NCBI GenBank assembly: GCA_019057475.1 | Contig: DXJO01000046.1 | Location: forward strand, 91,908-155,907 | Origin: Candidatus Thorarchaeota archaeon | Lineage (GTDB): Archaea; Asgardarchaeota; Thorarchaeia; Thorarchaeales; Thorarchaeaceae | Direction: 5' to 3' | Length of the DNA stretch: 64,000 nucleotides | Shown: in pieces, positions 8,943 through 43,051 of the stretch | Numbering within the stretch: position 1 is the stretch's first letter | Layout of the letters: each line of letters begins with the position of its first letter | Program-made: the position numbers and the translations under genes | Notes under the pieces: generated by a model | What the model was told of the DNA's origin: nothing | The model's database searches: none | Seen by the model: the letters and a program-made list of their open reading frames with translations, nothing else

Positions 8943-10181
8943 ATGCACTTCGAAGAGACTGACGAAGAAAAGATGTTCCGCGAGATGGTGCACGACTTTG
9001 CCCAAAAGTACGTAGCCCCCGCTTGGCGGGACTATGATAAGAACCACGAGATCCCCCGTGCGCTCATCAAGAAGATGGCCGAGCATAACCTCTGGGCACC
9101 TACGGTCGCAGAGGAGTACGGTGGAGCCAATATCTCGATGACAATGGCTTGCATCGCGGCAGAGGAGCTCGCTAGAGCAGACCTCTCAATTGCGTTGCCT
9201 GTCATGTACCTGGTCGAGGCTTCATGGGCATTCATCTTTGACATGTACGGCACTGACGAGGCAAAGAGCGAGCTTCTACCACGAGTCACCAAGGGTGACC
9301 TGTTCTTTGGTATCGCCACAACCGAGCCAACCGGAGGTTCAGACCTCGTTAATGTGACAAAGACAATTATCAAGCCAAAGGGTGACGGCTTCGTTGTTAA
9401 CGGTGAAAAGGTCTACATCAGCGGCATTGCTGAAGCGGAGCAGTACGGCGGTGTCTACTGGACCCTGGCTAAGTCTGACCCCAAGGGCGACCACAAGGCA
9501 TTCGATGCGTTCATTCTCCCATTCAATATGGGCGACGGCCTCCATCCAGGCATCACCACCACACTGTTCGAGGACATGGGTAGGATGGGTGTTTCCACTG
9601 GTGGCTTCAATATGGAGAACATCGAGATTCCCAAGCATTACATGATTGGCGAGCGCGATAGAGGATTCTACATGGCGATGGAAGGTTTCTCCGCAGCTAG
9701 AGTACTCATTGGTGCTACATGCCTTGGGTCCGCCGAGGGCGCCTTCGACATTGGTTGCGATTACGTCAAGCAGCGCAAGCAGTTCGGTCGACCACTGGCA
9801 TCCTTCGAGGGCATTATGTTCGAGGCTGTTGACTCCTGGATGCAGCTCCAGGCAGACAGGCTTCTCGTCTACAAGGCCGCCTACATCATGGACCAGCACT
9901 ATCGCGAAAAGAATCCCAGCTATTCGAAGCTCGACATTGCTAAGTTCACAGCGGCTGCGAAGTTCAGAGCTCCTCATGACGCTCTAGATATCATCACTCG
10001 CGCCATGACGTGGCATGGAGCATTTGGATACACCAAGGAGTGCCCACTTGAGGCAGCGTACCGGGGCGTACGGTCATACACTGTCGGTGCAGAGGGCGGA
10101 TCTTTGGTGCAAAAGATAGTCATGGGCAGGGAAATTTTCGGTCCTGAGTATCTCCCGTACCGGCAAGAGAAGCAGAAGTAG
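8943..10181 (+). CDS. Acyl-CoA dehydrogenase; its 3' end is the anchor of the repeat array
   Basis: ATTEPTGGSD, VNGEKVYISG, RKQFGRPLASF and HGAFGY motifs. Confidence 0.93.
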   Translation: MHFEETDEEKMFREMVHDFAQKYVAPAWRDYDKNHEIPRALIKKMAEHNLWAPTVAEEYGGANISMTMACIAAEELARADLSIALPVMYLVEASWAFIFDMYGTDEAKSELLPRVTKGDLFFGIATTEPTGGSDLVNVTKTIIKPKGDGFVVNGEKVYISGIAEAEQYGGVYWTLAKSDPKGDHKAFDAFILPFNMGDGLHPGITTTLFEDMGRMGVSTGGFNMENIEIPKHYMIGERDRGFYMAMEGFSAARVLIGATCLGSAEGAFDIGCDYVKQRKQFGRPLASFEGIMFEAVDSWMQLQADRLLVYKAAYIMDQHYREKNPSYSKLDIAKFTAAAKFRAPHDALDIITRAMTWHGAFGYTKECPLEAAYRGVRSYTVGAEGGSLVQKIVMGREIFGPEYLPYRQEKQK

Positions 10182-10232
10182 TTCTCATTCTGGTTTGAGA
10201 AAGGCACGCCCTCTCTCCAGCTCTCTTTTTTC
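10113..10232 (+). repeat. R0, master copy: last 22 codons plus stop of the acyl-CoA dehydrogenase, then hairpin and T-tract
   Basis: AAGATAGTCATGGGCAGGGAAATTTTCGGTCCTGAGTATCTCCCGTACCGGCAAGAGAAGCAGAAGTAG ttctcattctggtttGAGAAAGGcacgcCCTCTCTC. Confidence 0.9.
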
Positions 10233-10596
10233 TCACCCACCCCAGTACCAATCCTCCTCAATACGATAAGTTACATAATGCGCTCCTTTTATCAAATCGA
10301 ACAAGGAACATCGATTGAGCGCTCAGGGATTCAGGTTTCAGTTGTTTCCAGCGCCAGAACGTCGCATCAAGAAGCGTCGGCAGAAGATTGCTGTCATTAA
10401 CGAGGAGCTTGATTTGAGGGAAATCTGGTTTGAGATTGGGCCTAGGAGAGTGGTTCAGGCAGACTTATGACAGCCCTTTAGAGAAACGAAAGAAGGAGCA
10501 TTGGCTCAAGACCATGGCGCTAGTCTATGACTAGTCATTGAAGCTGAACCATAGAATTATAGATTCTCCTTGTCAATGGAAAACAGGTGACCTCAA

Positions 10597-11205
10597 GTGC
10601 CATGGAAGGTCTATCGAGCGCATAAGATACGCAAGGAGCCTGTAGATTGCGATTTCGAGGGAACCATTGTTGATCTCGAAACTATCGGGCCATTCACCCC
10701 TGTGTCATCACGTAGGCTTGAATTCGGTCAAGATTTCATCCGAAAATATCAGAGAATCAAAGTGACGACCGTTGGTACCCTCTCTGACGGTGTACTTCAG
10801 ATAGCTATTGCACTGGGACCGGAACACTTGGATAAGTTTGGGAAGAAGGTATTTTCAATTGTGTCGCGGTCAGACCGCCCGCTTTACGCCTTTAACAAGC
10901 CGTTTGAAGAGGGATGTCTTTTCTGGATTTCCAAGAATATATTGAGTTTTGAGAATGAGCTTCAGGCATTCTCTCGGGAGAATAAGGAACGAGCCGTCCA
11001 ACAACTGAAGATTCCGAGCTACAACGACCCGTATAGAGGACAGGGTAAGAAGTGCGTCGATGCCTTCATCAAAGGGGATCTAGAGAATATTGCCAAGCAT
11101 AACCGGGCTTGTTTGTTAAAGGAGCGTGACATCCTCAGGATTCGAGGTGCACGCACGATGCAGACCAAATGGTTAGATATTGACAAACTCGGTCTGTCTA
11201 GTTGA
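10597..11205 (+). CDS. RNase H-like 3'-5' exonuclease family protein (YprB/RNase_H_2-like), possibly degenerate
   Basis: IVDLETIG (ExoI), LYAFNKPFEE (ExoII-like) and IAKHNRACL (ExoIII-like, Asp missing). Confidence 0.55.
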   Translation: MPWKVYRAHKIRKEPVDCDFEGTIVDLETIGPFTPVSSRRLEFGQDFIRKYQRIKVTTVGTLSDGVLQIAIALGPEHLDKFGKKVFSIVSRSDRPLYAFNKPFEEGCLFWISKNILSFENELQAFSRENKERAVQQLKIPSYNDPYRGQGKKCVDAFIKGDLENIAKHNRACLLKERDILRIRGARTMQTKWLDIDKLGLSS

Positions 11206-11336
11206 TAATCAGAACACGAAGATATTCCAATGCTTCCTTTGAGAAGGTCCTACTCTGCAAGAGTCCTGCCTCCTTCAATGATAATCTATAAAGACAAGAG
11301 GTTCCTGCTACTGAATGGATGAGAACGACTGATTGG

Positions 11337-11651
11337 ATGAACACGAAACGGCTTCTCTGGTGGCTGATTGCTGGCACACGAGGTGGAGTAAACCGTGCCA
11401 GAATCATAAATCTCCTACACGAGAGGCCGTATAATGCCAATCAACTCGCAAAGCTTCTAAGACTTGACTACAAGACAGTCAGGCATCATCTTGCCTTCTT
11501 GATGAAGCACGAGGTTATCGTACAGCAGGGGGAAGGGTACGGTTCAGTCTACTATCTGTTTAGTGAGATTGACGCGAGCTTCGAGAGCTTCAGAGAGATT
11601 TGGGCACAAATTGGGAAAAGTGGTAAAGGTGGTAATGTTGACACAGAATGA
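11337..11651 (+). CDS. ArsR-family winged-helix transcriptional regulator
   Basis: LLWWLIAGTRGG.NRARII.LL.ERPYNANQLA..L.LDYKTVRHHL, an archaeal ArsR signature. Confidence 0.85.
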   Translation: MNTKRLLWWLIAGTRGGVNRARIINLLHERPYNANQLAKLLRLDYKTVRHHLAFLMKHEVIVQQGEGYGSVYYLFSEIDASFESFREIWAQIGKSGKGGNVDTE

Positions 11652-11655
11652 TGGA

Positions 11656-12084
11656 ATGAAGGACAAGAAGACAACAGTGATTCTAACTGTCACTGTGGTG
11701 GCCATAGTAGCAGCAGCCATAGGTTTAGTGCTCTCTACACTCATACTTCCACCTCCCCAGATACCACCTCCACCGATTCCAGAGCCAGACCGTGTTCTAA
11801 TGGACATCTACCTGAAGGTCAAGACTATGATTTCTTTGGTGAACGTCGTCCTCATTATCTCGTTGATGTCAATCTACTATAGCATCTATCGTCAGATCAA
11901 ATCCAACTTCACTATGGGACTCATCCTCGTCATGCTAATTCTCCTTATGTACGCTCTCACCTCAAACCCACTCATTCACGTTGCATTCGGTTATCAGGTC
12001 CAGGGGCTAGGCCCATTTGCTATGGTGCCGGATATTTTCACGACCTTCGCGCTTGGTGTGCTTCTGTACATCAGTCTCGACTAA
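11656..12084 (+). CDS. Small multi-pass membrane protein, partner of the ArsR regulator
   Basis: Four hydrophobic helices, Pro-rich loop and KSNFTMGL motif; directly follows the ArsR gene. Confidence 0.7.
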   Translation: MKDKKTTVILTVTVVAIVAAAIGLVLSTLILPPPQIPPPPIPEPDRVLMDIYLKVKTMISLVNVVLIISLMSIYYSIYRQIKSNFTMGLILVMLILLMYALTSNPLIHVAFGYQVQGLGPFAMVPDIFTTFALGVLLYISLD

Positions 12085-42085: not shown

Positions 42086-42178
42086 GATTCATTCTGCCAT
42101 TAAACTCCAAATCATTTATTCCAAAATACTCTATCTGATATTGAGTCTAGAATATGCATTCTATGGAGTGATTAAACA

Positions 42179-42496
42179 ATGGGTAAAATAAGCCCCTTCG
42201 TAAAGCTGCTAAGGGGTGAGTATGAACTCACCATAATCCTGTTGCTCACAAGACTTCGAGGAAAAGCTCGAGCTGATGAGATCATAAAGGCAGGTAAGAA
42301 GACCAAGACACTTCCAGCCCTTAACGGAGCAAGAGTTGCGGGCGCGCGCAAGTTCTTAGTGAAAAATAAGCTCGTTGAGATTGAAAAGGATGGCAACGAG
42401 ATTATTCACATCCTCACCAAGAAAGGACGCAAACTTGGCAATCTCCTGAATTCAATCTCCAATTTCATAGTCAAAGACTTGAAGTGGAAATGGTAG
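42179..42496 (+). CDS. Basic winged-helix DNA-binding protein
   Basis: FLVKNKLVEIEK...ILTKKGRKL wing motif. Confidence 0.65.
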   Translation: MGKISPFVKLLRGEYELTIILLLTRLRGKARADEIIKAGKKTKTLPALNGARVAGARKFLVKNKLVEIEKDGNEIIHILTKKGRKLGNLLNSISNFIVKDLKWKW

Positions 42497-42508
42497 TTCC
42501 ACATCCGA

Positions 42509-42575
42509 GAGAAGCAAAGGCAGTTCCTCAATCTGCAAGAGGTCGACTCATCCGCTCTGCCTCATCCCTTCTTTC
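42509..42575 (+). repeat. R16, highly degenerate copy
   Basis: GAGAAGCAAAGGCAG followed by TTCCTCAATCTGCAAGAG, 18 nt identical to R11. Confidence 0.5.
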
Positions 42576-42605
42576 CAGGTCGTTCGTCCTCGAAATGGTG
42601 AGCAA

Positions 42606-42830
42606 TTATATACTCATACAAGTTTCGGTTCTGACTACACCGGGAGCATCATGGATATCACTTACAAGTCGACGAAAGTTCGATCGTGAAGGTATCTCTG
42701 CATATGCGATGATATCGTATGGACCAGTCACGACATGAACATTTTTCACATACTCAACGTTTTCAATCGCCTTGGATGCTGCCTCTACAGTCTTTGCCTC
42801 AACTTGTATGAGAACGATGACTACAATCAT
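42606..42830 (-). CDS. Stand-alone Lrp/AsnC ligand-binding (RAM) domain protein
   Basis: VHVVTGPYDIIA...GVVRTET. Confidence 0.85.
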   Translation of the reverse strand: MIVVIVLIQVEAKTVEAASKAIENVEYVKNVHVVTGPYDIIAYAEIPSRSNFRRLVSDIHDAPGVVRTETCMSI

Positions 42831-43004
42831 AGCTTTTACGTTCCGTTAGACTCAATATGTTGTACACTAGCACATCATTCCACAAAAATATAACTGTTGC
42901 ATTCCATAGAGTAGCGAATGGATGAAGCGGCCAGAGGGAAACTAAGACAAGTCCCTTCTGCCCAACGTTTTGCTCTTGATCATGATCATCGATGAAATCA
43001 TTTT

Positions 43005-43051
43005 CCTAGCCGCGAGAGAGGTTTACCCTCTCTCCATTTCTCGTTCTTCTC
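43005..43051 (+). repeat. R17, hairpin-only copy and last recognisable unit
   Basis: CTAG...GAGAGAGGtttacCCTCTCTCCATTTCTC. Confidence 0.6.

Follow-up and report, generated by a model that had tools for sequence, protein, structure and literature searches.

Why should the end of one metabolic gene recur again and again between unrelated genes on an archaeal chromosome? The question is raised by a stretch of 64,000 nucleotides from a member of the Thorarchaeota (Asgard archaea; assembly GCA_019057475.1, contig DXJO01000046.1, positions 91,908 to 155,907), referred to as a whole as the window. In it the last 22 codons of an acyl-CoA dehydrogenase (ACAD) gene, with its stop codon and hairpin, reappear as direct repeats—about 17 relics over 13.7–43.05 kb. 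The array is probably the product of a freestanding homing-endonuclease element at the ACAD 3′ end and of homologous recombination between the repeats that it left. The gene and its native end are:

8943–10181, + strand: ACAD gene, anchor of the array, 412 amino acids (aa), with Pfam ACAD N, M and C domains
10116–10233, + strand: native gene end, consisting of a 48-nt arm (from the I-V-M codons), a 12-nt core (Q-E-K-Q, 10164–10175), the stop codon, a hairpin and a pyrimidine run

The repeated gene end and its variable cassettes

The closest homologues of the anchor are ACAD proteins of Thorarchaeota (76–97%). A nucleotide hidden Markov model (HMM) of the gene end was run on the whole genome, using the reversed genome as a decoy (best decoy match E 0.09), and recovered the native end and 15 window copies at E<0.05. 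The preliminary description of this DNA, made from the sequence alone, had placed about 17 copies here, and they are confirmed; the weakest two, at 42072 and 42506, are 12-nt cores below the HMM cut-off, the first backed by a junction in genome G005 and the second weak. That each copy comprises the last ~22 codons, stop and hairpin holds for about ten, which retain the 66-nt gene-end arm with the core. The remainder are core or hairpin only: those at 18323 and 43011 are hairpins, those at 21294, 35884, 42072 and 42506 are core-based, and that at 40405 has no stop. As had been proposed, every copy in the window is intergenic and in + orientation, and none precedes ACAD; the ACAD loci of relatives have no upstream copies either. 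The copies decay with distance from ACAD (mismatch to the consensus, rho 0.71, p 0.003). A further, cryptic arm relic at 20408–20416 was revealed by a joint (13797>20408) found in two other studies; cold-seep runs containing a small share of the organism were used for such joints only, not for habitat.

The intervals hold 0–4 genes each by count of open reading frames (ORFs), rather than the 0–5 first given. Their cargo lies on both strands and includes surface proteins, transporters and redox enzymes; a PADLOC scan of ten window cargo proteins without assigned function gave no matches.

The repeat, searched for with a strict pattern, is present in 38 of the 86 genomes of the family (0 in a reversed control), with arrays of 9–13 copies in several genera. 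Gene order downstream of the orthologous ACAD is not fixed among relatives. Close relatives have differing first cassettes after ACAD, two contigs of one sample encode an identical ACAD protein followed by different cargo, and window cassettes recur in congeners at 80–94% DNA identity in other orders; flavodoxin, for example, precedes the MFS and DUF362 cassettes in the window and follows them in G001. Because cassette order and neighbors vary in this way, the cassette platform is real and mobile: it is an array of exchangeable, mostly single-gene cassettes next to a restored target gene and its displaced direct-repeat fragment. The earlier proposal of a serial, variable platform on the 3′ end of a metabolic gene, with non-autonomous cassettes, is to this extent supported.

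An assembly artefact, or a dispersed family of terminators or miniature inverted-repeat transposable elements (MITEs), might be suspected from the copies on four more contigs of this genome (C28, C51, C22 and C8, in small co-oriented clusters; C42 has an additional weak match), from the many contigs of relatives that end at the repeat, and from the short-read nature of the data. Yet the copies are diverged rather than identical, four ACAD paralogues of this genome have none, and arrays occur in dozens of independent assemblies, with 340 of 341 matches co-oriented and clustered within loci. Scans of the genome and its relatives thus yield no dispersed two-orientation MITE, and no terminal inverted repeats are seen. 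A Logan unitig covers 10171–20043, 9.9 kb over the first cassettes, with zero differences and an even depth of ~40x, and over 20 kb a second assembly agrees at 99.985% identity, although both possibly derive from one sample. The window assembly is supported by these short-read data, and an artefact or MITE family is extremely improbable.

A LAGLIDADG nuclease module at the gene end in relatives

The first sign of a nuclease was a Pfam LAGLIDADG domain in the first cassette of G014. In about 14 distinct ACAD loci outside the window the first cassette is a double-LAGLIDADG endonuclease gene. Among loci selected by their ACAD gene, the ORF holds first place behind ACAD, in convergent orientation, at 10 distinct loci, and remnants are present in about five more; at locus L088 a two-gene toxin-antitoxin-like unit stands between the two. 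The nuclease gene is often paired with one for a HerA/TraG-like ATPase, after which comes the first repeat, the displaced gene end. When loci were selected by the nuclease alone, three of four adjoined a called ACAD gene and the fourth an ACAD 3′ part. Both LAGLIDADG aspartates (catalytic positions) are invariant in 27 sequences, and a structure model (pLDDT 92.8) matches PI-SceI, I-DmoI and E-DreI as well as WhiA, a fold that does not cut. Motifs and model point to a homing-family endonuclease in relatives with intact catalytic motifs, and presumably able to cut. A viral carrier was rejected, since a search of viral contigs turned up no match to the repeat pattern or to the nuclease.

The ACAD-adjacent nucleases form one clade, on one side of a 100/100 branch. 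The wider family (550–1500 aa, with helix-turn-helix [HTH] modules) is found in 38 of the 86 genomes. Other clades adjoin other genes, and 5 of the 20 loci examined show diverged duplicates of the neighbor's end, 87–254 nt long.

Other-clade loci are L196, L199, L202, L203 and L213; L194; L200 and L206; L197 and L209; L205; and L208. Their neighbors, as read from the sequence only, are Sec61-beta, electron transfer flavoprotein (ETF)-alpha, oxaloacetate decarboxylase-like, carboxyltransferase, PyrK-like and YchF genes. A 307-aa LAGLIDADG family member is encoded at L215 (C18:17714–18637), downstream of what reads as a putative transcription factor S gene, and G004 has a 1522-aa version with an ATPase at the equivalent place. 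Two further modules combine a HerA/TraG-like ATPase with a 902-aa ORF with no Pfam match (L242:5191–10455, on C21) or with a 1457-aa ORF with many HTH matches (L243:5823–13405, on C42); after the C42 module comes a methylmalonyl-CoA mutase ORF without the first ~170 profile positions. Both are possibly other nuclease types of the same element class.

The alleles L064, which has the nuclease, and L067, which lacks it, agree without a mismatch for 1,087 nt and, starting 130 nt ahead of the core, differ at synonymous saturation; other allele pairs switch at about −180, −120, −60 or −50, or after the stop. A site-specific integrase gives one crossover point, whereas break repair by homologous recombination gives a spread, so the scattered switch points argue for homologous recombination rather than a fixed attachment (att) site. 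ACAD tail types (QEKQM, QKGQFD, QKQQMEK and others) are random on the gene-body tree (14 changes versus 14.8 when shuffled). Non-standard tails are found in 6 of 10 native ends next to a nuclease, 3 of 19 native ends of nuclease-free arrays, and 1 of 196 copies. The first copy after the nuclease module is nearer to the copy consensus than the native end is (5/5 loci), and the replacement gene end has diverged from the displaced end downstream, at ACAD and at other targets too. Two loci have long displaced C-terminal pieces, of 126–137 aa. The L060 and L067 empty cassettes share their final ~16 nt with the nuclease module of L059, which is an indication that units lacking the nuclease arose from modules by deletion.

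Native ends adjacent to a nuclease also carry an excess of mismatches (13.7 versus 7.1), with peaks at +2, +3, +6, +15 and −12 and a further excess from −90 to −49. The upstream control also differed, so the excess was not accepted as proof of resistance, and because it extends upstream we claim no cut site.

The mechanism that we favor would have four steps. The first involves an autonomous element in which a recoded ACAD end with its terminator is followed by a double-LAGLIDADG gene in convergent orientation, in many cases by a gene for a HerA/TraG-like ATPase, and then by the displaced ACAD end; this architecture is seen in relatives, and cutting is presumed. A break near the gene end would then be repaired from a donor allele, with the left crossover anywhere in the gene and the right one in the displaced copy, swapping the gene tail and adding one repeat; the variable crossovers are seen and the break is postulated. 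Third, the nuclease gene would be deleted or replaced by cargo while the flanking repeats were kept, for which one case is seen that may be general. Finally, recombination would add, lose, duplicate and reorder the repeat-bounded cassettes, the reordering being seen and the enzyme responsible supposed. If the resolution of recombination falls chiefly within the 3′ portion of the repeat, where conservation is highest, the arm and core would stay with upstream cargo and the stop and hairpin with downstream cargo; if new units enter mostly at the gene end, the distal repeats would be the more decayed. The window would represent a nuclease-free, cargo-only end state.

Recombination might also have acted without homing. 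A rare, old gene-end duplication would have seeded the repeats, RadA-type recombination with incoming DNA would have done the rest, and the nuclease module would be a frequent passenger, gaining from its place beside its target. The variable crossovers agree with this, as does the failure to find a nuclease in the genus. The arms of a given cassette, moreover, are refreshed with synonymous variants, and an L052 copy matches the native end of another genus at 59 of 66 positions. This account leaves unexplained, however, why intact nuclease genes stand in first position and form an ACAD-tied clade, why tails are recoded beside nucleases when copies almost never are, and why sister clades flank duplicates of other gene ends, and we regard it as improbable.

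Site anatomy and the search for a recombinase

Similarity to ACAD starts sharply near the I-V-M codons, 48 nt before the 12-nt core, with nothing conserved further left. Of the copies, 59% start 44–55 nt before the core, and their 194 left flanks sort into 164 groups with no relation to one another. Variation among copies is concentrated at third codon positions (mismatch 0.33 versus 0.09–0.12), a bias that indicates that the arms derive from working gene ends. The sharp left edge may be set by the break or its processing, or may be inherited and kept fresh by conversion; the synonymous differences between arms of the same cassette suggest conversion.

Where the same cargo has new neighbors, the arm and core follow the upstream cargo and the stop and hairpin follow the downstream cargo, and in other samples the joints come immediately behind the core. 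For pairs that share the left side, mean identity is 0.74 in the arm, 0.94 in the core and 0.51 after it. Joints inside the arrays gather at the core, whereas the switch points of native alleles extend from about −180 to beyond the stop. The earlier view of the copies as this genome's own displaced gene ends is too simple, as the two parts of a copy travel with different cargo.

Three further readings were tried and set aside. A classic att site at −48, the left edge, in which case the entire gene end would move with downstream cargo, was rejected as a general rule because the arm and core stay with upstream cargo. Target-site duplication of the resident 66-mer was rejected because the native end and first copy differ at many synonymous sites. 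Back-going joints in contigs (20084>18387 and 18373>10497) are not evidence of circles, having short sides and coming from other strains.

The preliminary description had implied an integrase acting at att sites. One form of this would be site-specific accretion by a recombinase acting in trans, as in tandems of elements that are integrative and conjugative (ICEs), integrative and mobilizable (IMEs) or cis-mobilizable (CIMEs) and in tRNA islands, with the 8–12-nt core (Q-E-K-Q) as the overlap and the cassettes as cis-mobilizable relics. The breaks of shared cassettes at or just after the core favor it, as does the stronger conservation of the core, at some third positions, in copies than in native ends. 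So does a non-coding mini-element of ~100 nt with a palindrome at its end, which has no gene-like arm and sits in the core with a ~12-nt duplication; it occurs in 12 of the 86 genomes, in four genera, and its right junction is an 8-bp dyad around a 6-nt spacer. Its sites are C28:14913–14932 and 15900–15924, C51:86210 and 88382, C22:12676, and loci L146–L165. This genome has eight PF00589 matches, of which one, a tyrosine integrase gene reached by joining C29 to C28, is ~2.4 kb from the C28 copies, and another integrase ends the C51 island; the geometry of these two relative to the repeats, however, is inconsistent.

The tyrosine integrase has a C-terminal zinc ribbon and is present in two near-identical copies split across contig ends (C29 end/C28 end/C51 start/C50 end), one of which leads into the C28 island, which holds 3–4 ACAD-end copies.

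The enzyme itself was sought widely. Neither the window, the DNA upstream of ACAD nor the ACAD-anchored arrays yielded a recombinase, and an integrase profile search of those arrays was empty, although the assemblies are incomplete and a divergent enzyme could be missed. No cognate integrase was found on an autonomous member in ~60 distinct ACAD loci (incomplete assemblies); the autonomous element at the ACAD end in relatives is the LAGLIDADG module. Of 61 family genomes, 37 gave no match to PF00589 (a loose first-pass search of incomplete assemblies), the array-rich G001, G006, G010, G014, G017 and G023 among them, which suggests that the family has no conserved XerA-like recombinase. PF07508 (large serine recombinases) and PF16795 (SSV-type integrases) were not found in the five genomes tested. 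A resident recombinase was rejected, as PF00589, PF07508, PF16795 and PF00239 do not track the arrays, and an apparent integrase match in the G014 array proved to be a membrane/zinc-ribbon protein. With native crossovers that are not fixed in addition, we consider a recombinase in trans unlikely, and the integrase mechanism first implied is not supported.

Several observations nevertheless weigh against an origin by homing. No remnant of the nuclease or ATPase lies in the window, and no window cassette end can be traced to the nuclease module. The ACAD-clade nuclease was not found in this genome, where the C18 protein is the only relative, or in six other genomes of the genus (these assemblies). 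The mismatch excess of nuclease-adjacent native ends reaches upstream to −90 and is confounded by kinship; the mini-element, with its duplication and dyad in the core, looks like recombinase work; and the left edge is sharper than plain recombination predicts. Locus L088, with 90.6% ACAD identity, does carry the nuclease. As the ACAD-clade nuclease was found in neither the window nor the genome, the homing element is linked to the window array by family-wide inference.

The window array and its place among known systems

The cassettes and copies (R1 to R17) that follow the native gene end are listed below.

10597–13663, +: cassette 1 cargo, encoding a 202-aa unknown protein, an ArsR-type HTH protein, a DUF8036 membrane protein and a ~500-aa membrane protein; the 202-aa gene is also first cargo in locus L052 (90.8% DNA identity)
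13757–13822, +: R1, full arm, core and stop, frame intact
13888–14658, −: 256-aa protein, no Pfam match
14739–14850, +: R2, degenerate arm, core, stop and hairpin; in run X4 its core is joined straight to the flavodoxin cassette
14861–18289, −: 891-aa beta-helix/Ig surface protein and flavodoxin, the latter a cassette of its own in relatives
18323–18378, +: R3, hairpin part only
18393–19868, −: MFS transporter, common to G001 at 94%
19970–20139, +: R4, full arm, core, stop and hairpin; an extra ~100 nt matches native downstream DNA (86%)
20408–20416, +: cryptic arm relic (two-study joint); the G003 cassette begins at 20402
20437–21084, −: 215-aa protein
21294–21330, +: R5, core, stop and short hairpin, opening an empty 119-nt cassette
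21365–21480, +: R6, full
21531–30737, −: adhesin-like protein of ~3050 aa, a single cassette, with beta-helix domains and ~11 Ig/cadherin-like repeats
30856–30973, +: R7, full
31096–31482, +: 128-aa unknown ORF
31490–31604, +: R8
31592–31891, +: first copy of a ~480-nt cassette, duplicated at 40026–40325 (85%)
31971–32088, +: R9
32147–33142, +: DUF362 protein; the whole cassette is in G001 at 93% with different neighbors
33196–33290, +: R10, degenerate arm as in the G001 copy behind the same cargo; the hairpin differs
33312–35747: 496-aa secreted-type protein (−) and NADPH-dependent FMN reductase (+)
35884–35940, +: R11, partial core, stop and hairpin
36001–39581, −: four-gene ABC transporter/regulator unit, which G096 has at another locus
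39927–40040, +: R12
40038–40301, −: 87-aa membrane protein (duplicated cassette)
40405–40464, +: R13, arm and core, no stop
40568–41407, +: luciferase-like monooxygenase, common to G006
41419–41508, +: R14, short arm, core, stop and hairpin, the hairpin near the native one of G023 (another genus) and L145
41582–42001, −: UPF0047 protein
42072–42083, +: R15, core only; the homologous G005 cassette ends at the same core
42179–42496, +: 105-aa ORF
42506–42570, +: R16, core and hairpin, weak (E 3.3)
42613–42812, −: ORF of ~76 aa, cargo of the last interval, AsnC/Lrp ligand-binding-like by eye only
43011–43052, +: R17, hairpin only, distal end of the array (E 3.6e-4)
43106–48079, +: downstream flank, a Bmp-type ABC transporter operon, in the same position after the last cassettes in G003

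Related units were noted elsewhere. A 33-kb island at C51:75600–108800 (in part L245) carries AbiTii, other accessory genes, a terminal integrase and 4–5 ACAD-end copies; as these lie far from ACAD, array fragments have been relocated. The four-gene ABC cassette of the window (35939–39680) recurs at L166:10162–13903 with 83.6% identity, adjoining a mini-element end, in G096, a single-contig genome in which this ACAD was not found. Between two 99.9% identical strains (L139:13336–13351 and L140:13336–13483) a 132-nt deletion trims the left part of an arm, which shows how truncated copies arise.

The nearest parallel to the autonomous member is the mobile ORF (mORF) element of fungal mitochondria, described at atp6 of Allomyces macrogynus and at atp6, atp9, cox2 and nad3 of Glomus (PMC3630166). 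Both have a freestanding LAGLIDADG gene with a synonymously diverged replacement C-terminus and a displaced C-terminus downstream, and in architecture the thorarchaeal module appears to be an mORF-type homing element. The present case differs in that it lies on an archaeal chromosome, with a large nuclease that is convergent to its target and often accompanied by a HerA/TraG-like ATPase, and in that 10–20 nuclease-free, reshuffled cargo cassettes accumulate. Endonuclease activity of the Allomyces mORF is reported to have been shown biochemically (PMC3630166), whereas here it is predicted.

Integrons and clusters of attC sites lacking integron-integrases (CALINs), including archaeal ones (PMC9668308), likewise consist of tandem, mostly single-gene, exchangeable cassettes between co-oriented sites, with a proximal-to-distal age gradient and most of the site traveling with the upstream cassette; toxin-antitoxin pairs are cargo in relatives' arrays, as in integrons. 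The differences are that the sites here are protein-coding gene ends with a terminator, cargo genes occur on either strand, and anchor crossovers have no constant position. No IntI was found in the window or in ACAD-anchored arrays, the IntI-specific insertion not having been checked in the distant integrases of this genome. Folds of four sites on both strands gave z-scores of −0.4 to −1.9, not significant for an attC-like fold, and the repeat sites have no Rfam match. An attC or integron identity was rejected on these three grounds.

Accretion at a gene 3′ end, with a restored gene and displaced fragment, is shared with Streptococcus tandems of the ICE/IME/CIME and microCIME kinds at the fda, rpsI and rpmG 3′ ends (PMC7563491) and with tRNA/tmRNA islands (Islander, PMC4383910), as are non-autonomous cargo units and empty 120–150-nt units. 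Those systems need a tyrosine or serine integrase and reported composites have two or three elements, whereas here up to ~18 units occur, the search for an integrase found none and a nuclease is what the autonomous member encodes. Additive flexible genomic islands (PMC5217437) share a fixed chromosomal position and cassettes gained and lost among close relatives, but are described as largely the work of site-directed recombination; here the end of a metabolic gene serves as the position, and the evidence implicates a homing nuclease. Our literature search, outside whose reach most subscription papers lay, found no paper on this array system.

Integron-like hypervariable regions are thus built in an Asgard lineage in which 37 of 61 genomes tested show no tyrosine recombinase. 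A type of selfish element known from fungal mitochondria, in which a nuclease comes with a replacement gene end, would here be placed in an archaeal chromosome and scaled to 10–20 cassettes. The family offers a testable pair of enzyme and target—large LAGLIDADG proteins of a new family, divided into target-specific clades, and natural pairs of alleles that are candidates for sensitivity and resistance—and bears on the origin of repeat-bounded gene cassettes. Less likely than not, yet worth considering, is a wider class of thorarchaeal 'homing islands', in which large LAGLIDADG-HTH nucleases with a HerA/TraG-like ATPase would dock on gene ends and nuclease-free cassettes would insert via their breaks. 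If that is true, these archaea would have an integron-equivalent platform for gene capture and shuffling that draws on double-strand-break repair in place of a recombinase, and by which cargo such as adhesins, transporters, redox enzymes and defence genes would pass from genus to genus in a lineage near the eukaryotes.

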